From assembly GCA_964187785.1 (NCBI GenBank), contig OZ076409.1:23562001-23622000 (forward strand): a DNA stretch of 60,000 bases. The letters are read 5' to 3'. Source of the stretch: Amphiscolops sp. MND2022. Its lineage: Eukaryota. The notes under the pieces were generated by a model. The model did no database searches. It was given only the letters and a program-made list of their open reading frames with translations, and was not told where the DNA came from. Position numbers and translations under genes: made by a program. Below are positions 10,388 to 51,317 of this stretch, piece by piece; position 1 is the stretch's first letter; each line of letters starts with the position of its first letter.

Positions 10388-10393
10388 TTTTTT
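10336..10393 (-). promoter_or_regulatory. -1 ribosomal frameshift signal (A AAA AAC plus stem-loop)
   Basis: gag ends TCA AAA AAC TAA. The -1 frame stays open for 161 codons into pol. Downstream hairpin AATACGCC...GGCGTATT with an inner stem. Confidence 0.85.
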
Positions 10394-17647: not shown

Positions 17648-18729
17648 TGTCATGCCCGCCAAGCATGAAGGAATTAAACGAACTCTAAAACATTAATTTA
17701 TACATCAAACTCCCTAAAATACAGATCATCATGAAAATACATTGCAGTAATTTATTCCCTGAACAATACAGTTGAGAGTATAACGACTGGAACTAACAGT
17801 CATCAATACTAAATTCATTCATATTATTGTGCATCGTTTAGAAACCAAGACTGAAACAATCAGTCATCAGCTATCGTGATAGTTTGTGATTTAATCATTC
17901 TTCATCCATTTTTTATATTACATGTAAAGTATTACCAGAATATTCAATCATTCATAACAACTACATTTCGTTCATTCATATTAGCAATTTGTACAATGCC
18001 TTTTAGTAATTATCCTCCAAACGATAATTGAATCAGTCACCATGATGATAAGAACACGCGGTAGTAAAGCCTCAGTTTAAGAGGCAATTGAGACAATTGC
18101 GTGCTAAAATGACTGGTGCTTGCGGTCATACTGGATCAAACATGAATAATTAAACGCCGATTATCACCCGTCACGACTGTAGCCACCAGTCGTCAAGTGC
18201 AATTAAACAGCAATTAGTAAATCGAATGTCATTGGCTAAAAGGAAAGGTGCTAACACACCTTTATAGTTACACAATCGGGTAAAACCGAACTCACTCACA
18301 AGTTGTAACCATTGATATAACCAGTTGCCTACTACCTTGCTTACGAGTTGTCAATCCTTATTTTAACATTAAAACATTTCGATTCAACTTAAACTTCCAG
18401 ACTTTTCATGGTAATTACCAGATCTCAAAGTAGTCAAAATAGACAAGTAGAAACTGAAAATATGGATAGATCAAGCGATAACGAAAGTGAAGCCAGTTTC
18501 CCTGAATATTTATCCAGAGACCAAATGGTAGACCTTGACTCTGACGACGTTTTAACTAGACGTCAAAACAGTTACAGATATAACATTGACCAGCGATTTA
18601 ATGAGATAAATAGACAAATCGGAGACCTTACTAATATAGTCCTTACACTGACCAATCAGTTTGCCTCCGTTAATGGAGAAGGGAACAGACTGAAACCAGC
18701 AACTACAAGTACTGACGGTCGTTTCGACA
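17648..18729 (+). repeat. 5' LTR of element B (1,082 bp)
   Basis: TGTC...GACA termini; direct repeat of 31467-32577 with a 29-bp indel and roughly 16 substitutions counted by eye. Confidence 0.97.
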
Positions 18730-18745
18730 TAGTGACAGGAGTCTT
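18730..18745 (+). other. Primer-binding site (TAGTGACAGGAGT; TGG>TAG variant)
   Basis: Adjacent to the LTR end; matches the element A PBS except at position 2. Confidence 0.7.
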
Positions 18746-19930
18746 GAACCCACGACCATCAGGATCTCGAACAACACCACCCAACGGGACACCAAGGAGT
18801 GACGAAAGTATTCCGCAGATAGCAGATGTGATGACGGAAATCCACCATCTCCGCAGTACAATGGGGGAAACCTTGACCCATCCAAAAATCCTGCAGACCC
18901 AAGTACCTCTATTCAAGGGAAATCGAGACAAATACAATGAACTCGAGCATTTATTGCTCAACCACTTACGACCACATGCCCACAAACTAACCGAAGAACA
19001 AAAACTCAACTACTTTCAGAGTCTTCTCAGAGATGACGCAATTGAGTTTTGGCAAACCCTAACAATCACAACAGAAACGACACTGAGAGATATACTGACG
19101 GCATTCAAAAAAGAATACGCAAAGGAAGAACTCTCAGAAGTCTCGAAGTTCAAATTCGACCAGCTACGATACGATCCGGCCACTGAGTCATTCAGTACCT
19201 TCCTCGCCAATTACAAAAAGATTGCCAAACAAGCCTACGGCGAAAATGCACAGGAAATTGTCCAGACCTTCCTATTTGCCAAATTACCGATCCAGCTCCA
19301 AAACGAACTGACAATTGCAGGAAAACACAATGCCAGCATTGAAGACATCAAAACATTCGTCCAGAGAAGATGTCAATATGCCCAGTAACTACCAAACCAA
19401 CAACTCCTCCAACCGTTCAACCAAGCTATCCAGACACAAGAAGTCCCAAACAAGCCAGTTGTTCAGAAGAGGAACGAAAACAAACGACCAACAATCAAAA
19501 AGAAATTCGATGGCAACTGCAGATACTGCGCAATTTACGGACACAAATGGGCTGAGTGCCGAAAACGACTGCGTGACGAAGCAGCGGGCAACAACAACTC
19601 ACAACCTCAGAAAAAGCCCGAACAGCAAAATAACAACGCAGAAACACAACCAAAATACAATGCCAAACTGGTCTGCCAAATTTGCGGATATACAGGTCAC
19701 TCCGCAAAAGACTGCCGTTACAGAATACCCCGAACCTCCGCCTACGGAAGCGTGCCATACAATAGGCAAACCACAAATGAAAACAGGGACTTCCGACGCG
19801 ACTTCCGAAGAGCACACAACTACCCTTACCCAGCAAATGAAATGAACGAACTTGCACCAGGGGACCAACAACAGCAAACCAGTGATGACTACTACCAACA
19901 GGAATTCACCGAAGGATCATCCAGCCAGCC

Positions 19931-19937
19931 AAAAAAC
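19931..19937 (+). promoter_or_regulatory. -1 frameshift slippery heptamer A AAA AAC
   Basis: CCA AAA AAC TTC TGA at the gag end; the protease ORF (19979-20578) is in the -1 frame. Confidence 0.75.
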
Positions 19938-22900
19938 TTCTGAAGCCACGTCATCCGACTGACTAATACAATAACAAAGTGCGCAACATGAACAACTACT
20001 ACTACACAAAGAACTACAAAAACCGGGCAACTGATCTTCGGCAGGATCAGAAACCTAAGACTACAACTACCCACGAAACAACCAATGACAAAATGAACCC
20101 TCCCTTCGAACCAACGGACGTGAACTTACAAACGACAGAAGACAAACAGCACTCTAACTCGACTACAACGACTGACTGTACAAGGAAAACAATGAACCGA
20201 AAGAAAGACGTGGCGATCCAGGTGTTAACAGCAACACTCCAATTAAACAAAAAGGACAAGATGTTGTACGTCCCATTGCAATTCCGAGAATACGAGAACC
20301 ACGGACTCCTCGACACAGGAGCAATAAGAAGTGCAATGTCAGAAGACGAACTCAGACGAATCCTGTCTGCACACCCAGCCGCACTTCTCGAAGAGTACCC
20401 AGCACCGGACTTCAAAGTCCAAATCGCAAACGGAAGCATCGTCCCGGTCCGGAAACAGGTACTACTTCGCTTCTTCATCGGAGGTAAAGTATTCGAGGAA
20501 ACCTTCATGATTCTTTCAACCATGGGTAACATCTTGATCGGAATGTCATTTTTCAAAAAAGTATTCAGTGACACTTGACCTTGCCAACAACGTAGTCAAG
20601 TTCCCGGATATTACCCTGCAACTGAAACCAGAACGAGGACGATACAAAATCCAGATGATCGAATTACGAACGACACAGAAAACAGTCATACAACCGGACC
20701 ACCAAATCATTGTCCCCGTCCTAGCAGAAAGGGACCTCGGGACAATCCAGGGCACAGTGGAAACCTTTCCTGCCTTTGAAAGGAAGACACAATTACTGGT
20801 GTCCCCCGCCCTAACGCAAATCACTGAGAAGAAAAGCCATGTCCAGTTCACCAACCTCACTTGCCATACAATTACCCTCAACCCGAACACGACAGTGGCC
20901 ACCTTCAAAATAATGACTCCCAATCAAGCAAAAATTCTACAACCAATGTCAAACGAACAATTGACACTAATAACCAAATACCCGGACGAAGCCAACAACG
21001 TACTGAACCGTCTGTTTCAGGAACCCGGCACTGAAACCAACCGCAGATGGTACCCAACCCCGGAGACATGTGACGACCCGTCCAAGCTGAACCGCATTGA
21101 AAGGCGGATATATAACGAAATCACTCAACTCCGTGAAGAAGAGAAACTGGACCCAACAGCAGACGACCAACAACGCAAGGAGTTCCTTGCTAACTTCAAA
21201 TGGGAGAACTCAATCCTGAATGAACACGAACAACAACAAATTGAGAACCTCCTTGTGAAGTACAACAATGTATTCGCCAGACACCGCCTCGACATAGGCA
21301 TCAATACTGACTTCAAAATCAAACTCACTCCGAAGCATGATGAACCAGTCTACGCGCAGAGCTTACCTACACCCACCAACCTCAAAGATGACCTGCTCGT
21401 CGAACTAGCGCTGATGCAAGAGTACGGGATCATCACGACGTTGCCGTACAGCAAGTATTCCTCACCAATATTTGCCCAGCGCAAACCCAATGGGAAACTT
21501 CGCATTCTTGTAGACCTGCGCAGAATCAACCACCTCTTGAAAAATGATTACAACCAACATAATCATCCAGTCACCACCATCGCCGACGCCGCCCAGCACA
21601 TGGCAGGGAAGAAGGACTTCTGCAAGCTGGACTGCTCGCAGGCGTACCACTGTTTGCAGATGGCGGATGAACAATCCATACAACTCTTGGCATTTAATTT
21701 TGGAAGTCGAACCTTTGCTTATCTACGACTGGCACAAGGACTCAACCGATCCCTATCAGCATTCAACAGCACGGTGCGAGAATACGTTGATGCACTGGTG
21801 AAAGCGGATAAATGTGCCCAATATGTCGACGACATTGGGATTGCTGCCCACACTGTAGATGAGCTACTGTCAAACATTGAAGCTGTGTTCCAACAAATCC
21901 AAAAAGCAGGACTGAAATTGTCGATGTCAAAATGTGCGTTTGGTCACCCACAGATCGACTTCCTCGGGAGAAGCATCACATCAAAGGGTGTCGCCCTACT
22001 CGAAGACAAGATCGACGACTTCCTCAAGAAGATCAAATTGCCCACATCAATCAAATCCCTCCAAAGGTACATCGGGTTTGTCCAGTTCTACAGGCAGTAC
22101 ATACCACGCCTAGCAGAAAAACTCACCCCACTGTACAAACTACTCCAAAAAGACGTCAAATTCCAGTTGACCCAGCCGCACAAGGACATCATCTTCGAGA
22201 TTAATGAAAATCTTGCCAAAGCTGCGAAACTTTCGCTGCGTTTTCCGTTACCCGATAAACAGCTTGTTATAATGTGCGACGCCAGCGAGCATGCAGCAGG
22301 ATATGTCCTCCTGATAGAAGACTATACCGAAACAAACGATGGACCACTGAAAACGTACGCCCCAGTATCATTTGGATCCCAACGATTCACGGAGGGCCAA
22401 ATGTCCCTAACAATGTACGCAAAGGAATTCCTGGCGATGCATTTCGCATTCGATGAATTCGCACACATACTCTGGGGTGTCAAGAAACCAACAATAGTAA
22501 TGACGGACAATAAAGCACTGACCCGATTTTTTCAGTTTAAACGGATTCCCCCGAAGCTATGGAATTACTGCGATCAGACGCTCCAATTCGAATTCGTACC
22601 TGCCCACGTTCCTGGAACTGAGAACCCTGCTGCAGACTACCTGTCTCGTCTTGACATACGACCAGAGGAAAGAATACACCTCAAACTCAACGACGAGATA
22701 CCAGTCTTCCACGTCGAGATCGACCTGGCATCGAGAACACCCAAGCAGGACGAAGAAGAAGAAGAATGCATACCTGATGACCAACACACTACCACCACCA
22801 AACAAAATGAAGCCATCAACGCCATCCTGGACCAGGTCCCCATGTGCAGCAACGAATCGAGTGGACAGTTTCTCGAGAGGATAGAAACCATCTGTCATCA

Positions 22901-24737
22901 AATCACACCCATCATCACAGGGCAACATGACGATATGACGTTCACCAGATTCAGACGAAAGCTTCATGACAACGTGGTAAACCAGGTATGCCCCAATGGG
23001 GAGTATCAAATCATCCAGGATCAAGTCGTAAACCTTGACATCCAACGCATGATTAGAATTTTGAACCAAAAGAAAACCCTTTCTAATCATGTGAACTTTG
23101 AAAGTCAGTTTTTCCAAAAACTAGTTAAAAACAAGAAAAGACTTGAAGTAGTGAACAACGTTTTGTACAGGAATTTTTTTGATGGTACAGGTAAAATCAA
23201 GTGTAAACAAAATGTCACTCCCCCTGAAACCATTCGGAAAATCATTCAATCCCTGCACGATCACCCTCTGCAAGGTCACCCTGGCTGTAACAAAATGCTC
23301 CAGGAACTGCGTAAAAGGTACTACTCACCAAACCTTTCTGAACTGGTACTGCAATACGTCTCGAACTGCCAGGACTGTATCCGCGCAAAACCAATCCGAA
23401 AAGCTGCAATCACACCACCACTTCAACAAATATACGACCCCTGCAACGGACCAGAAGACATACTAGAAATCGATTTAGTCGGTGAACTCCCACCTTCCAA
23501 CGGATTCACACACATCCTCACTGCATGCGACTACTTTTCTAGGTACCTCTTCGCAATACCAATCCGTAAACCGGACACAAAGTCGGTCGTAGAAGCACTC
23601 ATGCAAATCTTCACGCAGCACTCGTATGTACCCAAAACAATCTTAACTGACAAGGGAACGACATTCACATCTCAACTACTCAACGCCCTGATGGAGTCTG
23701 CCGGTATAAAAATCGAACACTCCTCTGTAAAGCACGCACAAACGATCGGGATGGTTGAACGTTCACATCAAACACTGAAACAAATTCTCAAAATCAACAT
23801 CTCAGCTGATTCACCACAATGGCACAAATACATAAACATGGCCGTAATGGCCCATAACACAACCTACCACCAGGCTATCCGATGCACACCCACTGAAGTT
23901 TTCCACGGACGTGTTCCGTTCAATGCCCTTGACGTCAAATTTGGCCAGCCATTAACCGAACAACGTAACACCACTGACGTCACTGGAATACTAGATAACA
24001 TGAACAAAAAATTCCAACAAACACATGACAACATAATCGAAGCCTTTCACAAATACAAGAATTACTACGACCGAAAAGCGCAAACTTCACCTCTGAAAGT
24101 AAACGATTTCACCTTTCTGCTAAACAAAAGACTGTCTCAGCAATCTGAAAAAATTCCTTTCAAGGAATTCAAGTGGGAAGGCCCATACAAAGTGGTCAAA
24201 GTCTTGTCAAATTCAAATTACATCATACGTAAGATTGGCACTCTTCGCACCCAATGCGTTCACAGAATGAGGCTTCGCCCATTCACGCCAAACGCACCAA
24301 TCGAAGACATTCAAGACAATGCATCACAATATTTCGAAGATCCTGACGCCCTCAACGAGCAGGAGTTATTTGACAATAACCTACATGATCATGTCCATGA
24401 ACAGCCACAACAAGTAATACCTGAACAATCAAACTTCGAAGAGTTACACGCAGACCATGGAATGATCTACTACGAACGGCAAAACATAGAACCTGATCAA
24501 AACATCTCCATACCTGAAAGCCAGGCTGAAACACAAGAACCACAACCGGATAATGCTAGCATGAACAATTCTGAACACCAAACAAATGATCGCCCTCCAG
24601 CGCCATCACGACACACCATGTCTCGATACGGGCTCAGACACAACCCAAAACCTACCACGTACCCTGATTTCTTAATGCACGAATTACATGGTACGCCTTC
24701 ACTGCAACAGTTACTTCTGAAAAACAGAAACCTGTAA
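19937..24737 (+). pseudogene. pol: Gypsy pol (PR, RT, RNase H, integrase, GPY/F)
   Basis: LLDTGA; YVDD; CDAS; HDHPLQGH..CQDC; EID/TDKG/MVER; WEGPY. TAA at 19964; one extra A in the run at 20555-20560 separates ORFs 19979-20578 and 20568-24737. Confidence 0.95.
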
Positions 24738-26466
24738 AACACCCATCCCTCATTGCATTTCTCAAACCAACGACTGCTAACAGCAGTCATAAACAGTCTC
24801 GCTCCTTGACCGTAAAAGTAATTGTTTTACAATTACGACCCTGTATACCAGTACTCAACAAGCAGTATTGAAAATTCCGGACAACCTAGCACACAATCCA
24901 ATTAATACGATTAAATGACCATCCACTTCCGTCGTCACTGTTTGAGCTGTCTAATTACTTAGCGTCAACTACTACGTAAGAAGCAAACAAACGGTAACGC
25001 AACGACTGCAAACGCCAATCATCCCAACACTTGCGGCCCAGAAGCACACGTAGCAAGCAAAAATGTGAACGATAATTTATTCAATTCGCACCAAAACTAC
25101 CACGTCAACAAACGAAACGAAACACTTCGCTTAGAAAACCGTCGAAACACAACTAACGAAACGTGAACGAAAACAACGTTCCCTACAAGCGCAACAAACT
25201 AACAGTGACGATCTGCTGCCTGGAAAACGTTAAGACAACACAACCAATACTCCACCCATTTCGACTTAAACCCATAGTGCTGGCTGTGTGGGTGCGTCGT
25301 CGAAAAGCGCGCTTGTGTGGTTGGTCGTCACCATACAGATGAAGGTTGCTCTTTAGCAACTGGATTCAGTGTTAGTTTTGCATAGGTGGTTCCGACGAGA
25401 ATTCACCTTTTCCAATGAACTGAACACCGAAAATAACAAACCAACCATAGACGATAACACAACGCCGGTAAACAACAAGAGCTTGCCAAATTCAGAAAAC
25501 AATGAATACCCGACCCCTTAAAAATAACCAGATATGCGAAGGCTTCGCCTCGCTTGGGAAAAGATTCAGGAGTGCGCGGCCCCAACCTCTGCTTAGTATT
25601 AAAATCTACACACACCCATAGTTCTCAGTCTAACAACTTCCTACCACCGAAGTTAACATAATGTAAGAACTCGCGATCTTGACGACACACATCACGTATG
25701 ATGACGTCCCAGGACACACATCAACGATGATGACGTCGCGTACACAGACCGCTACATGTAATATATTGAAACACACTAAAATACATGTAAAATAGTCCCT
25801 AAAAATTATAACATGAATATTACATACACACAAAATAAGTCATGCATCAAACCAAGGATACACTCCTTGAGCCTTCCGTCATCGTAATGAACAAGCTGCT
25901 CAGTCACGTACCTTACAGTGCGGCGCTAAGGACTGGAAGGCCATGGTCTGAATGTCTCGTTACCATTCTCGAGCCTTCACTAACAACTTACATGAAAACC
26001 TGGCTCTCGAGTACTATGCACAGCACAGTTTGACGCGTGAAAAAAAATGTTTATGCTAATGGTTACCACAGTGACAACCATAACCAACATGAACTTCCTC
26101 AATAAATTCCCTGAACACGCCGTAACAATTAGAGCGTAAGTCCACTCGAAACCATAGCGAAGTATGGGTTACCCCTTACACACACTTAAGAAAGACAAAG
26201 CATAAACGTACATACAAGCAAAACAATTGAAAAACCTCTTGTGACGTCCGAACTGTCCAGTCCTAAGGAAAAACAAAGAAGAGTACTATGACGGTTGCAA
26301 CCATCTAATTAAATCACTAGAAAGTGCAAGACCTACTAAGGCCAAAACAAAAAAAAATTGCAGCATATAAAGCAAATCACAATATCAGGACTCAATAAAT
26401 ACACAAAAAGCTGAATACACAAAGAAATATGGAAAGTCTGATTACTAATACAAGTCCTTCTGCCAA

Positions 26467-29400
26467 CTAATACTCTGTAGAACGGCTGGAGCCGCCCTCG
26501 TTACTGCTTTCTTCGAGTGAAAAAGCCCGCCTGCTGACTTGTACAATTTCAGTCTCAAAGGTAGCCAGAGTGCGCTTCCCTTTCTTGTCCGGCTTCCCAC
26601 CGGTCCTCTGTCCGTGATTGCCCCCTGACGTCCTACTGACTGCTTTGCGCTTCGGAGCTGACTCACTCGGACCTGCTGACGACACTACGACCTCGGATTG
26701 CAATTTCGGCGCTTGAGCTGCTGAACGCCTTGATTTGACAGGACTCCGACGGGGAGCAGTTGGACTCGACTCCATTGTCCGCAACTGATTACAAACAGCA
26801 GACACATAATCGTCAATGACAGGGCAAGTAGGTAGTCCACCAGTCGTCTCCAGTACTGTGACACAGCGCCCAAGCGATTCATCAACCCCCCTCTTAACCA
26901 ATTGGTCCCAGGTGATAGCTCTGCCTTCATCGGTAAACCGCGAAACCTGCATGTCTGTAGTGCTGCAGTGTCTAACAAATCCAATCATCGAGCGTCGAGA
27001 ATGCCCGCCGAAACCACTCGACATCCAGCTTCGAATAATGTTCAAACTTGACAGCATGATACAGTCATCGAGGGCTGTGTCTCCTACATCCTGAAAATTA
27101 GCAGCATACGAATCATGGAGCATTCCCACAAAAAGAATCTCCACAATGCCCCGGAATTCTTGGCACCGGTCCCACGAAGGATATGACAGCCACAAAGACA
27201 TGGCATCGTCAATAACTGGCACCATCGAAGCATTGGACTCCCATCGATGCTTGAAGTAGTTGACTACCTCGCGATACTGCTGCAAGATGATGGCACCTTG
27301 ATCTCCTCTGCAAAGATCTCCAAAGCTGAGCACAGAAAGTGTACCCACAAGGATGTCTGTCAGCCGATCCATTGACACCGATTGTATAGCATAAGGATCC
27401 AGCGGCAACAAGCTGAGGTGCTTAACCCACCCTTGGTCATAATCGCCAATGCACGACTCGCACACAGTCCTGAGGAAATTCTGCACTTCTTTATAAAAGA
27501 AAGGCTTCTGGCTGACCACGTCGAAGCGGAAGTACTGGCCGAACAGCACTTGAAATCGGGCCTTGTCAACAGGCTTACTCTCGCCCAGTCGCAACTTCAA
27601 CACGGCGAGGACTTCAAAATCAGGTGGTAGCGATGAGGGTTCGACGACCAGAGACAATAACTCCCGAAGGAAAGCAGCCAGCTCCCGCTCGAACCACAAG
27701 TTCCGGTCTCGCCCAGCAGAACACAAGCGAGGACACTTTGCAACAACTGAAACACACAGGTGAATCACAACCAAAATGTTGAAAAACTACACACCCTAGC
27801 AACTCAGACGTCGATAACACCCAAATCCACAATTACAACAAAACTAGTACCGACACACCCGTACACAAGAAACACTCAAAACTCTTATACTGACCTGTCT
27901 CTGCCAGAAAATTCAAAACTGCAAATCGCGGCCTCGACAAAGCATCGTTGAAGACTTGAGTTTCCATACTGGCTATACTCCGCGTTTCGGACACAGTATT
28001 TGACCGGTGAACACCGAAGTAGGCACCGAGGTCGTCCCATCGCTCCACAAGTTCGGTGCACAGTGCCGACAACTCCTGGAAGCGCGCAGCACCACCACGG
28101 ACGAACTAAAACAAAATTAGCACCGAGTTAGAACGAAGCAGACCACGACCACACATTACCACACATACTCACACCAGTCCCCGAAAAAAAAAGAAAAAAA
28201 AATGCGCTAACAAACTTAAAATCAATTACCTCTCGAAGCCTTGGCATATTGTCAAATGACGAACCACCGATGACGGCGGCTAAACGGAACCGGAAATACT
28301 CCAACACGCAGAAGGGTTCCAGTCCACTCAACTCTCGCAGAAACGTGCGCCGCAGCAAATCCTTCAGCCAGTCCACATCGAGACGACGGGTAACCAAAGG
28401 TATGGCTGGGTGCGCGATGCTAGCTAAAGCACGCCCAAGACGCAGATTCTCTCCCACACTCACAGCACACAGACCCGCATGAGACTCCACACAGGCCAGA
28501 ACAGAGACAACGATCTTGAGTAGTGAGCGTTCCCACTCACCACCACCAGGAATAGCAGCTAGCACAACCATCTTGACTGTCAGAGCGTCAAAAATGTGGC
28601 AATCCACCCGCTTCAACGACCCATCAGTGCGGACGTGCAGACCAAACCGCGCCCCAGCAGAGAGTAGATCGCTCAGTTTCTCCATGACAAATGGATACAG
28701 GCCGTACAACACAAGACTCTACAACAAACATACAACAGTGACACTTCTCAGCAAGTACTGCCAACGAAAACAGTAAGCAACTGCAAACACGAACTAGCAG
28801 ACAAGAACCAACATTCACGAACAAAACATGTATTACCTGACATTTCGGGTATGATAGCACCCTCTCACTGAAAACCAGCTCGCCCCGCATGCTACTGGAC
28901 CACACTTCCATGGACCGCACAACGCTCGAAAAGTCCCTCAGTTCAACAAAGTTATTGATGAAGCAGCATAGCCAGAGGTATGAAGAACTGGACTCCGACA
29001 ACTCGGGTTTCGAACCAGCTGCCTCCTCTTCTAATTCAACCGCAATCCGCTCTTCAACAGTCAGCTTCACCTCTGACTCCAGAATGACAGGTGGCTCTGA
29101 CACTCTGGCTGCCCGAATTCTCCGATCCTCGTCCAATGACACGGGCCTACAGGACTTTTCCAATAGAGGCCTATTAGACATGATGCGGAAGCGCTGCTCA
29201 AGACGAGTGTGCTCTCGCCCTTTCCAATGATCCCACAAGTTGTGTAGCCCACGTCCGGCAATGCTTAAATCAACGTGGCACAGACGACACCTTGCGAACC
29301 CGTCCACCACACGTTTGTTTCGGGGGAAACCAACGAAGGTCCCCACGACCCCAGAAACGAAGAATGAGGGTTTCAACGTTTTGATAGCACGTTTCCGTCC

Positions 29401-30651
29401 TGCTAACACACAACACAAATCACATAGCACCACTGTCCAGCCAAAACCTTCCAAAAACAAAAAAAACGTGTTTGTCCTTAATCAGTAGTAGTACGTTATA
29501 TACACCTCTTATTTCTTTGTTTACCACCTAAAACTAAAACCCCTCACGTGATCTTTTGAGAGTTCTTACCAGGCTTTGATGTGGAGGCAACAGCGGACGA
29601 AGTCCCCCCAGAAGGAACGACGCTCTTTTCTCCAAACTCAGACGGCACATCAGATTCCACTGCCGCACGACGATCGTCCACACCAGAGATGCTCCCAGCT
29701 ACGGAGCGTGGTAGAGAAGAAGTCTCACCACCACGGGGAACGAGAGGAGCTTGACCCAGTTCTCGCAACGCTTCCTTCATTTTGTCCAGGAATTCCTCGA
29801 CAGCGAGGGCACCCACTGTCCCTAGCCGGCCCAAACTAGACTCGATTGCAGCCTTCACCCACTGCTGAATTTCCCGTTCTACACGTTGAAACAATTCAGT
29901 GAACTGCCCCACAATGACATCAGCTCGAACATTGGCATCTGCAAAGTAACCCTTAGTTCATAGCACCTACTTTGAACTCAACGACTGAAGGCATCTATCA
30001 CCGCCTGGTTAGAGAACAGCAACCGTATACTGCATGCATTGGTATTGAACAACAAAAGAACCAAAAGACCCCCCCAGCAGATAACTTAACTTCACAGTAA
30101 CCGTGAATTCACCTACCAAGTTGCGATGTCAGAAAGGCATCCAGTCGACGAAGGATGGGCGCCGCATCCGTCTCAGAACCCTCAGCAGTTCCAGTGGCTA
30201 TCGAAGCACGAAAGCGACGTAAATAACTGACCACGTCGGACATGTTGACATCAGCTACAAACACGAGAACACCCTATTTAAAATGCTACGCCTGACACTC
30301 CCTAACATTACGGGACTCAAACTTGAAAGTATGCAAACTTGAAGGAAAGACTTAACTCTCCCTTACGCTTTAGACATACCACTGATAGTAGTACAATATA
30401 CGAAGTGAGCACTTACCAAATTCCTGGGAGAGAACGACATCCAATAAATCGCTTAAACCAGCGATATTAGCAGAAGATACCCGAGCCGCAAACTGACAGC
30501 AGTAACTAGTCTCCAGCAATAATCCTGATAACTCCAGATCGCCTCCACTTCCACCTAGCTGAGCCCCCTCTCCGGTCATCTGATTCTCCACTTCAGCGAC
30601 TAACTCAGCTAATCCGGGACCAAAGGACTGACCTGCCTCATCATCAGACAT
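26467..30651 (-). CDS. Spliced antisense accessory gene of element B; zinc finger plus inactive hAT-transposase-like protein (1,095 aa model)
   Basis: Seven GT-AG exons 30651-30417, 30254-30117, 29938-29570, 29402-28837, 28718-28230, 28105-27895, 27746-26467 total 3,288 nt, all phases compatible with no stops. Zinc finger CRLCHVDLSIAGRGLHNLWDHWKGREH. Confidence 0.8.
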
Positions 30652-31453
30652 ATTGGATAACGCTGGGAGAAAAGGAAATAACTGAAACTCTCCGGGGAAA
30701 TAATAATCGGCGACGAAGACACGACTGCAAAAGCTCATTCTTCCATTTTTTGTTGTTATAGACTGATCACCTATTCCAATATACAATGGATACCTGATCT
30801 CCTCATCAAACAGTTTTACTCTAGTAATACTGGACATTCAAGGAACCATATTTTTGGACCTACTTCCACCAGACATCAAATGCTAATTACAAGAAGCAGA
30901 AAGAAAGCAGTCGTATTTCCCAGCCAAAAAAGACTAATTCCCCGAACAATCTTATCAGTACAAGCGATACCCGAAAAACACAGGACTAACAGTGCAAAAA
31001 ACAAAACATGGACATATTTTCATCATTGTGGAAGAATGAGCAAAAGGTTGACAAACGGAGGTGAATACTCTCAAATTAAAGCGGGATCAAATTTCAATTC
31101 AAACAGTAATTGACTCGACTGACTTTCACTATGGCAACACAACAAATCAATCAACTGCCGATGATCGATGAAAAGTTGCTTAAACAAACATCACGCTCAA
31201 TGCGCACTACACGGATGACGTGGCTGTCAAACCGTTTCTATAAATAGACTTCAACTTCCGACTACCTACTATTTGCCTGCCTCACCTTGTCCATTCACGC
31301 TTCCGAATGTTTCCAGAAGCTACATTGCCACCCACGCGTTTCTCTATACCTTGCATGCCACTTCAGCCGCTGTTCAATACTCCACTCAGATATCTGCTAC
31401 CTCTCAACTCGACCGTTCACCTTACCCATTACCCCTACAGCCTGCTCTCTCTC

Positions 31454-31466
31454 AAAAAGGGGGGAA
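31454..31466 (+). other. Polypurine tract
   Basis: AAAAAGGGGGGAA directly before the TG of the 3' LTR. Confidence 0.9.
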
Positions 31467-32577
31467 TGTCATGCCCGCGAAGCATGAAGGAATTAAACGA
31501 ACTCTAAAACATTAATTTATACATCAAACTCCCTAAAATACAGATCATCATGAAAATACATTGCAGTAATTTATTCCCCGAACAATACAGTACTCAATAC
31601 AATTAACAATACAATCAAGTTGAGAGTATAACGACTGGAACTAACAGTCATCAATACTAAATTCATTCATATTATTGTGCATCGTTTAGAAACCAAGACT
31701 GAAACAATCAGTCATCAGCTATCGTGATAGTTTGTGATTTAACAATTCTTCATCCATTTTTTATATTACATGTAAAGTATTACCAGAATATTCAATCATT
31801 CATAACAACTACATTTCGTTCATTCATATTATCAATTTGTACAATGCCTTTTAGTAATTATCCTCCAAACGATAATTGAATCAGTCACCATGATGATAAG
31901 AACACGCGGTAGTAAAGCCTCAGTTTAAGAGGCAATTGAGACAATTGCGTGCTAAAATGACTGGTGCTTGCGGTCATACTGGATCAAACATGAATAATTA
32001 AACGCCGATTATCACCCGTCACGACTGTAGCCACCAGTCGTCAAGTGCAATTAAACAGCAATTAGTAAATCGAATGTCATTGGCTAAAAGGAAAGGTGCT
32101 AACACACCTTTATAGTTACACAATCGGGTAAAACCGAACTCACTCACAAGTTATAACCATTGATATAACCAGTTGCCTACTACCTTGCTTACGAGTTGTC
32201 AATCCTTATTTTAACATTAAAACATTTCAATTCAACTTAAACTTCCAGACTTTTCATGGTAATTACCAGATCTCAAAGTAGTCAAAATAGACAAGTAGAA
32301 ACTGAAAATATGGATAGATCAAGCGATAACGAAAGTGAAGCCAGTTTCCCTGAACTTTTATCCAGAGACCAAATGGTAGACCTTGACTGTGACGACGTTT
32401 TAACTAGACGTCAAAACAGTAACAGTTATAACATTGACCAGCGATTTAATGAGATAAATAGACAAATCGGAGACCTTACCAATAAAGTCCTTACACTGAC
32501 CAATCAGTTTGCCTCCGTTCATGGAGAAGGGAACAGACTGAACCCAGCAACTACAAGTACTGACGGTCGTTTCGACA
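31467..32577 (+). repeat. 3' LTR of element B (1,111 bp), containing the Gag N-terminal ORF 32256-32591
   Basis: Direct repeat of 17648-18729; followed by TSD CTAAG. Confidence 0.97.
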
Positions 32578-35169: not shown

Positions 35170-38100
35170 AGAAATCCGCGCAGTAACAAAGATTTTTTTC
35201 TTGAGAGAATTCAAAGTAACAGGTTACTGCTGAGACCTTTGGTTGATTCTGTACGCTTTTCTAATGCTGAAGTGGATGTTCTAGTTGATTCATAGCATTG
35301 TTTCCTCCAATACATTTTTTGTTGCTCAAATAAGGTGGCCTCTTCTTAAAGGCTTCGTGGCTCACAATACAAAGAAGTTGCACTCCCAGTGCAAAATATG
35401 TTGAAACTTTTGCAAAGATTCTTACCAGGTGTTTCACAAAAATGTAAGATTGTTATCAAGAAGTTCAAGAGTTTTTTCACTGAGCTGTGCCTCTGGTTGT
35501 TCGTGAGTCTTTATTCGCCTTCATTAAACGCGCTTCTTTCCAACTTCCATCGCTAAACTTGAGTAACTCTTTATGCAACCTTCAACACACAAATTGTAGC
35601 AGACTGGGAATGAAGGCGAATAGTTTCAAAGCAGAAAAAATTTTGTTATTGGTTCAAAAAAATCGGTAATGATGTAGGTATAACCAAATCGTTAAAACTA
35701 CGTCCGGATTTCCTTTGGATCACATGATTCTTGTTGATTTCGTAAGGTCGTCGGAGTTTGGTGTCCAGAAACGCTTTATCAAAACCATTTTGCTACTTAT
35801 TTCGTTTTAAGAATAGCCAAACTCAACATCAATCGGTCTCAACGATTGATCGCAATACCCTTTGAAGGACATCAACTAACTACTGAAATGTGCACCAAGT
35901 TATTTACGTACGCAGTGGGTGCTACCAGAGTGAAAAAAAGCTTCGAAAACATTGACTTCTGAGAATATCCTAAATTACTTCAAAGTAGCTTTTCGGTCCT
36001 GAAACGCTTTATTAAAACCATTTTGCTACTTATTTCGATTTAAGAATTGTCAAACTCAACATCAATCGGTCTCAACGATTGATCGCAATACCCTTTGAAG
36101 GACGTCAACTAACTACTGAAATGTGGACCAAATTATCACGGACGCAGTGGGTGGGTGCTACCAGAGTGAAAAACCTTCGAAAACAATGACTTCTGAGAAA
36201 ATCCTAAATTACTTCAAATTAGCTTTTCGGTTCTGAAACGCTTTATTAAAACCATTTTGCTACTTACTTCGATTTAAGAATTGCCAAACTCAACATCAAT
36301 CGGTCTCACCGATTGATCGCAATAGCCTTTAAAGGACATCAACTAACTACTGAAATGTGCATCAAGTTATCACGGACGCAGTGGGTGCTACCAGAGTGAA
36401 AAATCTTCGAAAACATTGACTTCTGAGAAAATTCTAATTTACTTCAATTTAGTTTTTCTCAATAAAGAAAACTTTCGAGCTCCTCAAAACAAACTAAGAT
36501 CTTCAAAACAGTTGATGAAGTGTAAGTTAGGTTTGAAATTGAACCTGAGATCTTCTAAACCATTTCCGAAGTTTGCCTTGCATGCATTTGGAACTGTGCC
36601 TCGTGTTTCTAAAGTCATCCAGCTCCGGGGTAATTATCTTCGCGAAAAAAAGTATCGGAAAAAATGTCAATTAATGTAAAGCGTACTTTCGAAATGCGGA
36701 TGAAAATGATAAGTGTGAGGACTAAGGAAGAAAATGGGAAACTCGGTACTACAACCAAAAGTTTCGAAAAACCATGCTAGCTAATTATTTGGAGTACTAA
36801 TATGGCCAGGCACGAAAATGGAGGCAACAAGCAACGTGAAGGATACAAGAGCATAGGGCTCAACAAGGGAATATTAGAGCATATGGCTCGATGAGAGATT
36901 AATACCGCATAAGACTCCATTAGGAGATTAACAGAGCGTAAGGCTCGAATAAAAATCTTGAGGGAACATAGGGCTTTATGAAATCAAAAAAAAGACAAAG
37001 CAAATCTCGGGAAAAGTCACAAACTGCGTCTAAGAGGAATGCAAACATCGAAATGTATCGTTTGGTATAGCAAACGTCAAAAACGTCAGAAAAATAGACA
37101 AAGCATTACTGGAAATGTAGAACATTTTGGGCCTTCAGAAATCAAACCAGTTTTGTTCGAATAAATAGTTTCTCCATCAGTGGAACGGAAAAGCGTTGAA
37201 ACAAATTGAATGAATCAGCACAAGAAAAAATGCAAAAACAAAAAGCAAGATTTTCGGAATTGAGAGTACGTACAGCGCTGATGCTGGCTAAAAGTAAAGA
37301 CGAATGGACGAAAAAGTGGCGCTGATGTCAGAAGACAAAGTTCACAACTGACGACTCTTGAAAGGGTAACGTCAAGCCTCATCATCGTTTCTGCGACGCA
37401 AACCCGTGTCGTTACAGCGACGAACACCAACTCGTTACTGCGACGATGGAGTTGAAGATGAACAAGACACCCGCTAAACACCGGGATATTTTCCGCCTTA
37501 TCAAAGAAAATCAGGATGAGGCGAGATTCGAACCCAAAACTGACTGATTGATAGTAACTGAATAAGTCAAGTAACTAAAACAGTCAAGTAGTGGATGGAG
37601 ATCGTGAAGAATTTACCATTAGTAACTACTTGACTACTTTAGTTAAAAAATAGTCAAGTAGGGATGGAGGTGATGGAAATTTGGCAAAATTTGTAAAAAA
37701 AAATGCATCACAGATCATGATTTTCCTCCCCCATTTTATGTGGGCGGAAAATAATAATAAGTAGAGGAACTACGAAGGGATGTAAGGACTGAATACTCCA
37801 GCGGACTGCTTGACGTGCTCCACGCAGACACAAAAGGCCAGTCCAGGAAACCAGAACCTTGCCCTGACGTCCTTCATCAATCGAAATTGTTGTTTCAATC
37901 ACTGCTTCACAACGAGGCCACTTCTCCAGACAGCCAGAAAAGAAAATGAATCTCAGTTGTTAGAAAATGTTTAATCCGCTTGCACAATAGGGGTTTTTGG
38001 CTGTTATGTTTGGAGCACAAAGGGATGCGAAAGGAATTGAAGAAATAATTGATTCGTTGTTCATGTATAAAGCGAAGTTGTTTACATTAGACGATGAATT

Positions 38101-41100
38101 GAAGACTAGGTTAAAGAAATCAAAAGGAATGGGAATTATGGCTTGGTTACAAGATTACGGCTCCTGAAGGCACCAGCAGCTAGCAGTGAAAGATTAATGT
38201 TGTATTGACCCGAGCAGTGCCTGTTTCCCAAATTATTTCAACCCAAAATGTCCTAGAAAGGGATTCACAAAACGTTAAAGATACCTTAGCAGGTACCAGA
38301 CAAGTCGTTGGATAAGCTTTTTAACATTTCCAGTATGTTGAAGACAATTGAACATGCTGGAGAAAAGCATTGTTTCTCTATGGCGTGGTGAATTGAATCA
38401 AAGGAAATCAAAGTACATACCATTTGAACTGATGGCACTTCACAAAGAAACTTGTTGAGATGTCCATCAAGTGGTTGACCTGAACCGACAAACGTTCGAA
38501 CTATACCCAAAAACTAGCGAACACCGGGTTCAGTAGGAGAATGTAGACATAGAACAATTTTGTAGAAATCAGCGCACTAACAAAGACTTCTTTTTCTTGA
38601 GAGAATTCAAAGTAACAGGTTACTGCTGAGACCTTTGGTTGATTCCGTACGCTTTCCTAATGCTGAACTGGATGTTCTAGTTGATTCATAGCATTGTTTC
38701 CTCCAATAAATTTTTTGTTGCTCAAATAAGGTGGCCTCTTCTTAAAGGCTTCGTGGCTCATAATACGAAGAAGTTGCACTCCCAGTGCAAAATATCTTGA
38801 AACTTTTGCAAAGATTCTTACCAGGTGTTTCACAAAAATGTAAGATTGTTATCAAGAAGTTCAAGAGTTTTTTCACTGAGCTGTGCCTCTGGTTGTTCGT
38901 GAGTAATTATTCGCCTTCATTAAACGCGCTTCTTTCCAACTTCCATCGCTAAACTTGAGTAACTCTTTATGCAACCTTCAACACACAAATTGTAGCAGAA
39001 TGGGAGTGAAGGCGAATAGTTTCAAAGCAGAAAAAAATTTGTTATTGGTTCAAAAAAATTGGTAATGATGTAGGTATAACCAAATCGTTAAATTTACGTA
39101 CGGATTTCCTTTGGATCTCATGATTCTTTTTGATTTGGTAAGGTCGTCGGAGTTTGGTGTGCTGAAACGCTTTATCAAAACCATTTTCCTATTTATTTCG
39201 ATTTAAGAATAGCCAAACTTAACACAAATCGGTCTCGACGATTATTCGCAATACCCTTTGAAGGACGTCAACTAACTACTGAAATGTGCACCAAGTTATC
39301 AGGGACGCAGTGGGTGCTACCAGAGTGAAAAAACTTCGAAAAACAATGACTTCTGAGGAAATCCTAATTTACTTCAAGTTAGCTTTTCGGTCCTGAAACG
39401 CTCTATTAAAACCATTTTGCTACTTATTTCGATTTAAGAATTGCCAAACTCATTATCAATCGGTCTCACCGATTGATCGCAATAGCCTTTAAAGGACGTC
39501 AACTAACTACTGAAATGTGCACCAAGTTATCACGGACGCAGTGGGTGCTACCAGAGTGAAAAAAAAACTTCGAAAACGTTGACTTCTGAAAAAATCCTAA
39601 TTTATTTCAATTTAGCTTTTCTCAATAAAGAAAACTTTCGAGCTCCTCAAAACAAACTAAGATCTTCAAAACAGTTGTTGAAGTGTAAGTTAGGTTTGAA
39701 ATTGAACCTGAGATCTTCTAAACCATTTCCGAAGTTTGCCTTGCATGCATTTGGAACTGTGCCTCGTGTTTCTAAAGTCATCCAGCTCCGGGGTAATTAT
39801 CTTCGCGAAAAAAAGTATCGGAAAAAATGTCAATTAATGTAAAGCGTACTTTCGAAATGCGGATGAAAATGATAAGTGTGAGGACTAAGGAAGAAAATGG
39901 GAAACTCGGTACTACAACCAAAAGTTTCAAAAAACCATGCTAGCTAATTATTAGGAGTACTAATATGGCCAGGCACGAAAATGGAGGCAACAAGCAACGT
40001 GAAGGAAACAAGAGCATAGGGCTCAACAAGGGAATATTAGAGCATATGGCTCGATGAGAGATTAATACCGCATAAGACTCGATTAGGAGATTAACAGAGC
40101 GTAAGGCTCGAATAAAAAACCTTGAGGAACATAGGGTTTTATGAAATCAAAAAAAAACAAAGCAAATCTCGGAAACATCACAAACTGCGTCTAAGAGGAA
40201 TGCAAACATCGAAATTTAACGTTTGTTATGGCAAACGTCAAAAACGTCAAAAAAATAGACAAAGCATTACTGTAAATGTAGAACATTTTGGGCCTTCAGA
40301 ACTCAAAGCAGTTTTGTTCAAATAAATAGTTTCTCCATCAGTGGAATGGAAAACCATTCAAACAAATTGAATGAATCAGCACAAGAAAAAATGCAAAAAC
40401 AAAAAGCAAGATTTTCGGAATTGAGAGTACGTACAGCGCTGATGCTGGCTAAAAGTAAAGACGAATGGACGAAAAAGTGGCGCTGATGTCAGAAGACAAA
40501 GTTCACAACTGATGAATCTTGAATGGGTAACGGCAAGCCTTATCATTGTTTCTGCGACGCAAACCCGTGTCGTTACAGCGACGAACACCAACCCGTTACT
40601 GCAACGATGGAGTTGAAGATGAACAAGACGCCTGCTTAACACTGGGATATTTTCCACCTTATCAAAGAAAATCAGAATGAGGCGAGTTTCGAATTCAAAA
40701 CTGACTGATTGATAGGAACTGAAATAGTCAAGTAACTAAAATAGTCAAGTAGTGGATGGAGATCGTGAAGTTCTGGCAAAATTTACCATTAGTAACTACT
40801 TGACTGTTTTATTTAGAAAATAGTAAAGCAGGGATGGAAATGATAGAGACTTGGCAAAATTTGTAAAAAAAAAACGCATCACAGATAATGATTTTCTTCT
40901 CCCATTATATGTGGGCGGAAATTATAATAAGTAGAGGAACTAAGAAGGGATGTAAGGACTGAATACTCCAGCGGATTGCTTGACGTGCAGGAATCTCCGC
41001 ATCATATATGTCAATTTCCTCAAATTTTTCATATGTGCTGGGACAACTCTTCTAGATTTTAATATCTCGATAATGTCTTGCTGCGACAATACAAAGCTCA

Positions 41101-44100
41101 AAACAGTTCATTGTCTGGATTGATCGGATATTATTAAGCAAGAATTTTTTGTCTGAAAACTTGGTTGATGCTGGTATGAAGCTTCCATCTCTGACGTCAA
41201 CTAACTACTGAAATGTGCACCAAGTTATCACGGACGCAGTGGGTGCTGCCAGATGAAAAAAAACTTCGGAAACATTGACTTCTGAGAAAATCCTAATTTA
41301 CTTCAATTTAGTTTTTCTCAATAAAGAAAACTTTCGAGCTCCTCAAAACAAACTAAGATCTTCAAAACAGTTGATGAAGTGTAAGTTAGGTTTGAAATTG
41401 AACCTGAGATCTTCTAAACCATTTCCGAAGTTTGCCTTGCATGCATTTGGAACTGTGCCTCGTGTTTCTAAAGTCATCCAGCTCCGGGGTAAATATCTTC
41501 GCGAAAAAAAGTATCGGAAAAAATGTCAATTAATGTAAAGCGTACTTTCGAAATGCGGATGAAAATGATAAGTGTGAGGACTAAGGAAGAAATGGGGGAA
41601 ACTCGGTACTACAACCAAAAGTTCCGAAAAACCATGCTAGCTAATTATTAGGAGTACTAATATGGCCAGACACGAAAATGGAGGCGACAAGCAACGTGAA
41701 GGAAACAAGAGCAGAGGGCTCAACAAGGGAATATTAGAGCATATGGCTCGATGAGAGATTAATACCGCATAAGACTCGATTAGGAGATTAACAGAGCGTA
41801 AGGCTCGAATAAAAAACCTTGAGGGAACATAGGGTTTTATGAAATCAAAAAAAAACAAAGCAAATCTCGGAAAAATCACAAACTGCGTCTAAGAGGAATG
41901 CAAACATCGAAATTTAACGTTTGTTATGGCAAACGTCAAAAACGTCAAAAAAAGACAAAGCATTACTGTAAATGTAGAACATTTTGGGCCTTCAGAACTC
42001 AAAGCAGTTTTGTTCAAATAAATAGTTTCTCCATCAGTGGAATTGAAAACCATTCAAACAAATTGAATGAATCAGCACAAGAAAAAATGCAAAAACAAAA
42101 AGCAAGATTTTCGGAATTGAGAGTACGTACAGCGCTGATGCTGGCTAAAAGTAAAGACGAATGGACGAAAAAGTGGCGCTGATGTCAGAAGACAAAGTTC
42201 ACAACTGATGAATCTTGAATGGGTAACGGCAAGCCTTATCATTGTTTCTGCGACGCAAACCCGTGTCGTTACAGCGACGAACACCAACCCGTTACTGCAA
42301 CGATGGAGTTGAAGATGAACAAGACGCCTGCTTAACACTGGGATATTTTCCGCCTTATCAAAGAAAATCAGAATGAGGCGAGATTCGAATTCAAAACTGA
42401 CTGATTGATAGGAACTGAAATAGTCAAGTAACTAAAATAGTCAAGTAGTGGATGGAGATCGTGAAGTTTTGACAAAATTTACCATTAGTAACTACTTGAC
42501 TGTTTTATTTAGAAAATAGTAAAGCAGGGATGGAAATGATAGAGATTTGGCAAAATTTGTAAAAAAAAAACGCATCACAGATAATGATTTTCTTCTCCCA
42601 TTATATGTGGGCGGAAATTATAATAAGTAGAGGAACTAAGAAGGGATGTAAGGACTGAATACTCCAGCGGATTGCTTGACGTGCAGGAATCTCCGCATCA
42701 TATATGTCAATTTTCTCAAATTTTTCATATGTGCTGGGACAACTCTTCTAGATTTTAATATCTCGATAATGTCTTGCTGCGACAATACAAAGCTCAAAAC
42801 AGTTCTTTGTCTGGATTGATCGGATAATATTAAGCAAGAATTTTTTGTCTGAAAACTTGGTTGATGCTGGTATTAAGCTTCCATCTCTGACGTCAACTAA
42901 CTACTGAAATGTGCACCAAGTTATCACGGACGCAGTGGGTGCTGCCAGAGTGAAAAAAACTTCGGAAACATTGACTTCTGAGAAAATCCTAATTTACTTC
43001 AATTTAGTTTTTCTCATCAAAGAAAACTTTCGAGCTCCTCAAAACAAACTAAGATCTTCAAAACAGTTGATGAAGTGTAAGTTAGGTTTGAAATTGCCCC
43101 TGAGATCTTCTAAACCTTTTTCGAAGTTTGAGTTGCATGTATTTGGAACTGTGCCTCGTGTCTCTAAAGTCATCCAGCTCCGGGAAATTTATCTTTGCGA
43201 AAAAAAGTATCGGAAAAATTGTCAATTAAGGTAGAGCGTACTTTCGAAAAGCGGATGAAAATGATAAGTGTGAGGACTAAAGAAGGAAATGGGAAACTCG
43301 GTACTACAACCAAAAATTCCGAAAAACCATGCTAGCTAATTATTAGGAGTACTAATATGGCCAGGCACGAAAATGGAGGCAACAAGCAACGTGAAGGAAA
43401 CAAGAGCATAGGGCTCAACAAGGGAATATTAGAGCATATGGCTCGATGAGAGATTAATACCGCATAAGACTCGATTAGAAGATTAACAGAGGGTAAGGCT
43501 GGAACAAAAATCTTGAGGGAACATAGGGTTTCATGAAATCAAAAAAAAGCAAACCTCGGAAAAGTCACAAACTGCGTCTAAGAGGAATGCAAACATCGAA
43601 ATGTAACGTTTGGTATGGTAAACGTCAAAAACGTCAAAAAAATAGACAAAGCATTACTGTAAATGTAGAACATTTTGAGCCTTTAGAAATCAAAGCAGTT
43701 TTGTTCAAATAAATAGTTTCTCCATCAGTGGAATGGAAAACAATTCAAACAAATTGAATGAATCAGCACAGGAAAAAATGCAAAAACAAAAAGCAAGATT
43801 TTCGGAATTGAGAGTACGTACAGCGCTGATGCTGGCTAAAAGTAAAGACGAATGGACGAAAAAGTGGCACTGATGTCAGAAGACAAAGTTCACAACTGAC
43901 GAATCTTGAATGGGCATTGTTTCTGCGACGCAAACCCGTGTTGTTACAGCGACGAACACCAACCCGTTACTGCAACGATGGAGTTGAAGATGAACAAGAC
44001 GCCCGCTGAACACTGGGATATTTTCCGCCTTATCAAAGAAAATCAGGATGAGGCGAGATTCGAATTCAAAACTGACTGATTGATAGGAACTGAAATAGTC

Positions 44101-45058
44101 AAGTAACTAAAATAGTCAAGTAGTGGATGGAGATCGTGAAGTTTTGGCAGAATTTACCATTAGTAACTACTTGACTATTTTATTTAGAAAATAGTCAAGC
44201 AGGGATGGAAATGATAGAGATTTGGCAAAATTTGTAAAAAAAACGCATCACAGATAATGATTTTCCTCTCCCAATATATGTGGGCGGAAATAATAATAAG
44301 TAGAGGAACTAAGAAGGGATGTAAGGACTGAATACTCCAGCGGGTTGCATAACGTGCAGGAATCTCCGCATCACATATGTCAATTTTCTGAATTTTTTCA
44401 TATGTGCTGGGACAACTTTTCTTGTTTTTAAAATCTCGATAATGTCTTGCTGCGACAATACAAAGCTCAAAACAGTTCATTGTCTTGATTGATCGGATAA
44501 TATTAAGCAAGAATTTTTTGTCTGAAAACTTGGTTGATGCTGGTATGAAGCTTCCATCTCTGACGTCAAGTAACTACTGAAACGTGCACCAAGTTATCAC
44601 GGACGCAGCGGGTGCTGACAGAGTGAAAAAAACTTCGGAAACATTGATTTCTGAGAAAATCCTAATTTACTTCAATTTAGCATTTCTCAATAAAGAAAAC
44701 TTTCGAGCTCCTCAAAACAATCTAAGATCTTCAAAACAGTTGATGAAGTGTAAGTTAGGTTTGAAATTGCCCCTGAGATCTTCTAAACCTCTTTCGAAGT
44801 TTGAGTTGCATGCATTTGGAACTGTGCCTCGTGTCTCTAAAGTCATCCAGCTCCGAGAAATTCATCTTTGCGAAAAAAAGTATCGGAAAAATTGTCAATT
44901 AAGGTAGAGCGTACTTCCGAAAAGCGGATGAAAATGATAAGTGTGAGGACTAAGGAAGAAAATGGGAAAATCGGTACTACAACCAAAAGTTCTGAAAAAC
45001 CATGCTAGCTAATTATTAGGAGTACTAATATGGCCAGGCATGAAAATGGAGGCAACAA
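35170..45058. repeat. Nested macro-satellite / segmental repeat array
   Basis: 35170-37815 repeats at 38564-40988. ~230-bp subrepeats occur x3 (35765-36450) and x2 (39160-39620). A ~1.68-kb unit is repeated in tandem (anchors CTGACGTCAA at 41191, 42887, 44560). The same 87-107 aa ORF occurs five times. Confidence 0.92.
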
Positions 45059-50420: not shown

Positions 50421-50427
50421 CAGTTCC

Positions 50428-51186: not shown

Positions 51187-51317
51187 GAGCCTCTAAGAAT
51201 CAGACACTTGTTCTTCCTGGGCAATCTTCTCAGTTGTCCACCAACGAGTCGTCTTCGTCCTCGTTTTCTTTTTGTCCGGGTCGTCCACCAACGAGTTGTC
51301 CGGGTCGGCGGACCAAA

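Follow-up and report, generated by a model that had tools for sequence, protein, structure and literature searches.

Why would a retrotransposon carry a spliced gene on the strand opposite to its own gag and pol? The question is raised by a window of 60,000 nucleotides from Amphiscolops sp. MND2022 (assembly GCA_964187785.1, contig OZ076409.1, positions 23,562,001 to 23,622,000; coordinates below are those of this window unless a genome locus is named). Here a Ty3/gypsy retrotransposon with long terminal repeats (LTRs), called element B (14.3 kb, 17648-31961), holds a gene of seven exons between the end of pol (24737) and the polypurine tract (31455), on the strand opposite to gag-pol. We propose, with a probability of roughly 55%, that this antisense gene is a hAT-derived accessory gene of an animal Ty3/gypsy lineage, lying antisense between pol and the 3' LTR and encoding a nuclear DNA-binding protein that does not cut DNA.

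The antisense gene runs on the minus strand from 30651 to 26467, where seven exons with GT-AG junctions join in phase into 3,285 nt without an internal stop and encode 1,094 residues followed by a TAG stop codon. The original prediction had named exactly these two ends, which are the start and the stop codon, as well as the place between pol and the polypurine tract and the stop-free frame of seven exons; all of this holds, only the given length of 1,095 amino acids (aa) had counted the stop. Exon 1 (30651-30417) begins with the start codon (30651-30649) and is followed by exon 2 (30254-30117; 138 nt, 132 nt in one subfamily) and exon 3 (29938-29570, 369 nt), the latter with chance-level Pfam matches only. 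Exon 4 (29399-28837, 187 in-frame aa) is the most conserved exon and codes for a putative BED-type zinc finger, and exon 5 (28718-28230, 163 aa) for a predicted RNase H-like domain at about 28356-28658. Exon 6 (28105-27895, 211 nt) has GT-AG flanks like exons 2 and 3, and exon 7 (27746-26467, 425 in-frame codons and the stop) comprises a predicted helical domain (about 27115-27717), weaker helices and a basic tail (26470-26727). Each of the six introns has GT at its start and AG, preceded by a pyrimidine-rich stretch, at its end.

Evidence that this is a gene comes from its copies. The genome (1.07 Gb) is that of an animal, since Wnt genes occur in it (best E 3e-45) and plant NAM does not; when it was searched with exon 7, at least 99 scored matches were obtained among 1,133 first-look candidates. 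Their protein identities group in tiers near 94-100%, 78% and 70%, and no stop codon interrupts 82 of the 99. More than a dozen identical copies of exon 7 are found in the 78% tier, hence this subfamily has moved recently. In an alignment of the window gene with eleven copies from different tiers, each copy has all seven exons, and GT-AG ends are found at 65 of the 66 introns that could be mapped in these copies. The spliced frame is fully open in six; a stop or a frameshift interrupts it in the remaining five, as is expected of dead copies. Some exons keep the same length among copies (563, 489 and 211 nt) and the others vary in steps of three nucleotides; the introns change length freely, and reading through the introns meets a stop in 41 of 42 intron-by-copy cells. 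The start ATG is kept in 12/12 copies, and in half of these (6/12) no in-frame Met occurs upstream before a stop is reached. For exon 6, about 134 of 150 scored genome matches span residues 1-70 exactly, with identities down to 53%, and the more distant subfamilies (40-67% identity) retain the same exons. As far as these alignments show, conservation of the start codon, the exon lengths and the splice sites is far beyond chance. Intron-less (processed) copies were not seen among the genome matches. Long frames around exons 6 and 7 at two loci (545 and 347 aa) had been candidates for such copies, and the one checked (L041) turned out to be intron read-through.

Selection on the protein was estimated as the Nei-Gojobori ratio of nonsynonymous to synonymous divergence (dN/dS). 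The window copy compared with the 78% subfamily gives 0.09 (dS 1.34), and a pair of copies from the 70% tier gives 0.056. By exon, the ratio is lowest in the finger exon 4 (0.03) and highest in exons 1-3 (0.1-0.5; exon 3, 0.08-0.17). Pairs of near-identical copies give 0.7-1.3, reflecting neutral decay after insertion; between subfamilies, the level that is relevant here, the values of 0.06-0.09 are well away from 1. Judged from this comparison of copies, it is highly probable that the antisense gene is real and under purifying selection.

Protein databases hold only exon-sized, unnamed fragments of the antisense protein. The exon 7 search at 'longer' lengths returned no full-length annotated protein, and exon 4 gave four read-through open reading frames (ORFs) only. 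At E ≤ 0.001, exon 7 is matched by 129 representative proteins. Ten of the clusters were looked up and proved to be unnamed ENA fragments, from which other species cannot be inferred, and part of the 40% tier of database matches resembles a divergent subfamily of the own genome. One database ORF from the 78% subfamily, P0203 (439 aa), is a single open frame that runs from exon 4 through the intron and exon 5; the unspliced form may thus be reported by gene callers. Intron 4 of the window copy (28719-28836) is also free of stops when read through, yet its 118 nt shift the frame. Elsewhere in the genome (G000:C13:45783329-45791787), four exon 7 copies lie within 8.5 kb on the same strand, spaced by 1,614, 3,956 and 1,614 nt; part of the gene has thus been duplicated in tandem at this place.

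The gene is found together with gypsy elements of more than one kind. gag and pol lie directly beside it on the other strand in three of the four subfamilies for which the downstream flank was fetched; in the fourth fetched flank no gag or pol was found. A second case stands in the same window. Element A, within 1-12000, belongs to a different gypsy family, with its pol recognized by Pfam at 6371-10396 on the minus strand, and a distant homologue of the antisense gene lies at 2208-5214 on the plus strand, in the same place and orientation relative to pol as in element B. Its frames 2208-2915, 2951-3595 and 3883-5214 are the counterparts of exons 4, 5-6 and 7; hhalign of the family profiles against them gives E 5.3e-5 for exon 4, E 0.006 for exon 5 and E 7.3e-6 (261 columns) for exon 7, and the finger spacing in frame 2208-2915 is identical. 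The intron between exons 4 and 5 stands at the same place, with a GT donor and an AG acceptor that can be read directly from the sequence. Absent from element A is the intron between exons 5 and 6, where exon 5 is fused with the first part of exon 6, and an extra intron occurs further on, indicating intron gain or loss within the gene family. Every subfamily examined has kept the antisense gene, as has a second gypsy family. This linkage, together with the homologue in element A, makes it an old and standing part of the element group and not a one-off capture.

Divergence along the element is uneven. Between the window element and the 78% subfamily (G000:C9:34035400-34050200, L011+L050), identity is 87-88% in the LTRs, 87% in the leader, 90% in gag, 93% in pol and 80% in the two non-coding flanks of the antisense gene; the gene itself, including its introns, is only 74% identical. 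In the same pair of elements dS is 0.27 in pol and 1.34 in the antisense gene, about five times as high. A selected gene that is more diverged than its own non-coding flanks points to exchange of the gene as a cassette between element lineages, and the identities along the pair suggest that this happened by recombination with one breakpoint near 26200.

What kind of protein is being conserved? In the predicted domain order, an N-terminal quarter without a recognized domain (exons 1-3) precedes the BED-type finger, which is followed by a domain of RNase H-like fold, by a large helical one and by a tail that is basic and disordered. The finger, a CxxC...H.....H motif already described in the original prediction, is found at 29209-29289 as CxxC-x16-H-x5-H, and its residues C37, C40, H57 and H63 with their spacing are invariant in 8/8 subfamily sequences. 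Exons 5 and 7 were modelled separately with AlphaFold. The exon 5 model, built on a 17-sequence alignment and reaching a predicted local distance difference test (pLDDT) score of about 80 in its core, runs through a helix, beta1-beta2-beta3, a helix, beta4, a helix, beta5 and a helix. In this model the topology is that of the RNase H-like motif, at the very place where such a domain had been predicted. Among 350,542 PDB chains searched with Foldseek, the hAT transposase Hermes ranks first (8sjd_A, E 1.8e-3, probability 1.00) and occupies six of the first ten rows; RNase H, retroviral integrase cores, RuvX and Pelota follow. Exon 5 aligns to Hermes 154-275, the longest alignment in its VIA table. 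The exon 7 model (54-sequence alignment) is all helix over residues 10-210, mostly with pLDDT above 90; residues 340-425 fall below 50 and form a disordered, basic tail of Ser, Lys and Arg, with Lys/Arg clusters resembling nuclear localization signals. Its match to Hermes 367-609 is weak, covering 173 residues at rank 5 of 48,161, and is again the longest in the VIA table. ESM Atlas gave no usable match for exon 5 or P0203, and a homodimer test with residues 1-340 of exon 7 scored 0.00, that is 'no answer'.

How far does this argue for descent from a hAT transposase? A BED-type finger upstream of an RNase H-like core is the hAT arrangement. The main argument is that exons 5 and 7, folded apart from each other, map to successive and non-overlapping parts of Hermes, downstream of a BED-type finger. 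Fold and domain order make descent of the antisense protein from a hAT-type transposase moderately probable. Genuine hAT transposons abound in the genome, and several of them have open frames of 597-697 aa, so that a source for such a capture is at hand. Motif parallels to hAT proteins picked out by eye (the beta1 Asp, S/T-D-N after beta4, A-H, R-W, L-D-P and S-S...R-x-F/W-S) occur in the right order but have no statistical support and were set aside. Inverted repeats of 100 nt or more were not reported in the window; short repeats flanking the antisense gene were not sought.

A series of results weighs against hAT descent and the role built upon it. Pfam finds nothing above threshold in the antisense protein. 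The only family match is zf-BED, which stays below its cut-off of 20.6 bits (E 0.0072, 16.8 bits) and is seen in six of eight exon 4 members. Pfam hAT families were not found in 54 exon 7, 17 exon 5 and 8 exon 4 sequences. This includes the hAT dimerisation domain PF05699, which is missing from the 54 exon 7 sequences at E ≤ 1; elsewhere in the genome, this model scores 150 hAT copies among 2,215 candidates. Profile searches of PDB sequences came back empty or at chance level. With hhalign, nine genuine hAT transposases of the same genome gave probabilities of at most 1% (best P 0.056; 0.2% for the exon 7 profile), and the best local alignments, which lie in collinear places, are non-significant and not counted as evidence. 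On the structural side, the mean pLDDT is only 66-67 in both models, no row of the exon 5 search falls under the tool's line of E 0.001, and the scores all lie in a zone where a shared fold explains them as well as common descent. Splicing of the antisense transcript is argued from comparison of copies, and the function of the protein is wholly inferred. The hAT reading of the original prediction is hence borne by fold, with Hermes as the best Foldseek match, and no sequence or profile test reaches hAT. For the exon 7 model, Foldseek returned nothing below E 0.69.

In an alternative reading, the gene is a selected accessory gene but no hAT descendant. The finger would have been joined to an RNase H-like domain from another DDE superfamily with an insertion domain or from a host protein, and the likeness to Hermes would be that of a shared fold. 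We consider such an origin unlikely. Hermes comes first among all PDB chains searched and fills most of the leading rows, its alignments are the longest in both VIA tables and follow one another collinearly, and a BED-type finger upstream of such a core is what a hAT protein has. Descent from hAT therefore remains our preferred origin.

Does a protein of this origin still cut DNA? Strand beta1 ends in Asp in most members of the family and in His in two sequences of a divergent subfamily. At the position after beta4, the 16 sequences have D in eight, E in three (Glu in the window copy), G in two, S in two and a gap in one. Neither acidic position is among the invariant columns, and a candidate for a third catalytic acid could not be placed in the exon models or alignments. 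The equivalence of these positions to the DDE sites is taken from the exon 5 model, not from a residue-level alignment to Hermes. The DDE triad of hAT transposases is not conserved in the antisense protein family. That the DDE acids are missing, as had been claimed, is right in so far as they are not conserved; as residues they are common. Since the acidic positions are not conserved, DNA cutting is not a conserved function and the antisense protein is expected no longer to cut DNA; from these alignments its catalytic death is likely. The opposite reading, in which it is still an active nuclease or transposase-like enzyme in some subfamilies, for example nicking the target or processing element DNA, would draw on the modelled places of the first two DDE acids, with an acid in most members at the first and in 11/16 sequences at the second. 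It appears improbable, because the same two divergent sequences have lost both acids, to His and Ser, Gly stands at the second position in the intact, multi-copy L015, no third acid was placed, neither position is invariant, and the by-eye counterpart of the hAT motif 'SER.FS' has Ile or Val at the Glu position.

On the preferred reading, the protein probably derives from hAT and no longer cuts DNA. Its invariant finger, retired nuclease-like core, helical domain and basic tail look like those of a nuclear DNA-binding factor. The gene may have originated from an old nested hAT insertion that was kept by the element. Introns antisense to the genomic RNA survive reverse transcription, an established principle. 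The genomic RNA of the element would show the six introns of the gene in the wrong sense to the spliceosome; written antisense, they would pass reverse transcription unchanged and be inherited by every new copy. A separate antisense transcript might start within the 3' LTR or in the 0.8 kb that separates this LTR from the gene, and would be spliced and translated into the protein of 1,094 residues. In the nucleus, this protein could act as a sequence-specific DNA-binding factor for the element, from which the element would presumably benefit. The two likeliest roles would be driving or tuning LTR transcription and tethering the integration complex to preferred sites; the original prediction had put forward a regulator, an anti-silencing factor or a targeting factor as candidates. 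A more far-reaching version, which we offer only tentatively, is that an animal Ty3/gypsy clade took over a hAT gene, introns included, as a required but exchangeable module, a retired BED-finger DNA-binding protein that serves regulation or integration-site choice and is swapped between lineages by recombination. That the gene is instead cargo of no use to the element, whether a host gene or a nested transposon acquired a single time, or a mere gene-finder illusion, is very improbable and largely refuted by the data. In favour of this reading, gag and pol are broken in the window copy, which does not need its open antisense frame in order to move, and the gene model is built on sequence comparison. 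Against it, passive cargo would decay towards a dN/dS near 1, in contrast to the low ratios across subfamilies with saturated synonymous sites, and neither the nearly complete set of GT-AG introns nor the presence of the gene in every subfamily examined and a second gypsy family fits such cargo.

The carrier, element B, is a Ty3/gypsy element in that it has paired LTRs, a polypurine tract and the order gag, protease, reverse transcriptase (RT), RNase H and integrase. Its 5' LTR (17648-18113, plus strand) starts with TGTCATG and was delimited by end alignment and by the repeat and blastn tables; the 3' LTR (31467-31961, plus strand) differs from it by five substitutions and one 29-bp indel, an insertion in the 3' copy. 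The polypurine tract AAAAAGGGGGGA (31455-31466, plus strand) abuts the first base of the 3' LTR. The plus-strand gag (18393-19943) has one in-frame stop at 19386-19388, which divides it into two pieces of the same phase (18393-19388 and 19389-19943; 331 and 184 aa); in a sister subfamily it is a single frame of 517 aa. The protease frame (19967-20578, 203 aa) and the RT/RNase H/integrase frame, here called pol (20538-24737, 1,399 aa; Pfam RVT_1 1.3e-19, RT_RNaseH 9.3e-16, rve 1.2e-13 and Integrase_H2C2 1.2e-17), both on the plus strand, are in different phases, whereas in the sister subfamily they share one frame of 1,524 aa. This comparison confirms the lesions in gag and pol that had been noted for the same copy. 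From the pol stop to the antisense stop codon, a spacer (24738-26466) has no coding frame of 80 aa or more and presumably holds the 3' end of the antisense transcript with its 3' untranslated region; AATAAA or ATTAAA was not found on the minus strand in the 770 nt behind the antisense stop. On the other side, the region upstream of the antisense start codon (30652-31454, minus strand), 80% identical to the sister subfamily compared with 74% for the gene itself, is presumed from its position to be the promoter and 5' untranslated region of the antisense gene; TATAAA or TATATA was not found near the gene. Beyond the 3' LTR (31962-32577), the match to the leader and the start of gag goes on to about 32577, with 96% identity over 1,111 nt to 17648-18729. 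This indicates that the LTR is common to a second, truncated internal region, in a tandem arrangement of LTR, internal region, LTR and internal region.

Further repeats occupy the rest of the window. A tandem array at 35200-45000 has a period of about 1.7 kb and five copies that are 91-100% identical, with repeats of about 233 nt ahead of it. A 24-nt unit forms two arrays between 47900 and 55100, one at about 50315-51309 and the other starting at 53969; both sit within a duplicated segment of 3.6 kb (47897/51518 and 49877/53531, 99-100% identical). Frames near these arrays include a weak aspartyl-protease match (47627-48568) and an RT (58844-59686), pointing to more retroelement debris in the window. 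A search with Rfam returned no family for the window.

The locus matters beyond this element for several reasons. The animal family that it represents is large, has many copies and was active recently; its antisense gene is long, multi-exonic and under strong purifying selection, and the finger together with the RNase H-like core points to a testable activity, DNA binding. Such loci will be mishandled by gene predictors and repeat maskers alike. Host genomes repeatedly co-opt DNA transposases, and genes of the ZBED type are examples of host genes derived from hAT transposases. If the hAT descent is true, here a retrotransposon would have co-opted a DNA transposase, a case of domestication between two classes of mobile element. 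We found no description of a retrotransposon doing so in open-access full texts.

Among known systems, Hermes (8sjd, 4d1q and 8edg) resembles the predicted order of the antisense protein, with a finger, an RNase H-like domain, a large helical domain and C-terminal helices one after the other. Unlike hAT transposases, the antisense protein has no detectable sequence similarity to them, no PF05699 and no conserved acidic triad. It also has an extra N-terminal region of about 250 aa, and its gene lies inside a retrotransposon and not between inverted repeats. In its genomic setting, the gene resembles a different group of systems. In plants, antisense extra ORFs between pol and the 3' LTR are known from Retand, Grande, RIRE2 and PvRetro13, and they are suspected of binding DNA or of having a regulatory role (PMC11963269; PMC7264820; here and below, as far as the excerpts of the cited sources go). 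The aORF-3R of Tat/Retand elements is alike in being antisense to gag-pol, in occupying the interval between pol and the 3' LTR and in being conserved and present in most copies (PMC11963269; PMC7264820). The plant proteins are mostly TRP28/Transposase_28 (PF04195) or SMC-like segments, and they are given as single ORFs, the word 'intron' being absent from both texts (PMC11963269; PMC7264820). Here, in contrast, seven exons code for 1,094 aa with a BED-type finger and an RNase H-like core, the host is an animal, and no Pfam scan matched PF04195 or SMC-like segments in the antisense protein. Outside plants, brtn is an extra antisense gene of a Ty3/gypsy family, the Boty-like gypsy elements of Botrytis and Sclerotinia (Zhao et al., 2011, Virology 417:248, cited in PMC8365987 and PMC7264820); it is alike in this respect and unlike in being fungal, and we set it apart by its description and not by sequence comparison. 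HBZ of HTLV-1 and APH-2 of HTLV-2 are likewise encoded on the strand opposite to gag-pol, transcribed from the 3' end and nuclear regulators (PMC11963269). They belong, however, to exogenous retroviruses of vertebrates and are bZIP proteins of about 200 aa with unrelated sequence and fold, hence the parallel is one of analogy only. A role of the antisense protein in transcription control would echo both the role suspected for the plant antisense ORFs and that of the known retroviral antisense genes (PMC11963269). Accessory ORFs of animal LTR elements, such as the planarian Burro and rotifer elements, have been reviewed (PMC6431247), and the word 'antisense' is absent from the text of this review. 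A BED/hAT-like multi-exon antisense gene in an animal LTR retrotransposon was not found described in open-access full texts, a search that leaves Repbase-type notes uncovered. By its place, its orientation and its retention, the antisense gene of Amphiscolops belongs to the class of gypsy antisense accessory genes, known so far in plants and fungi.

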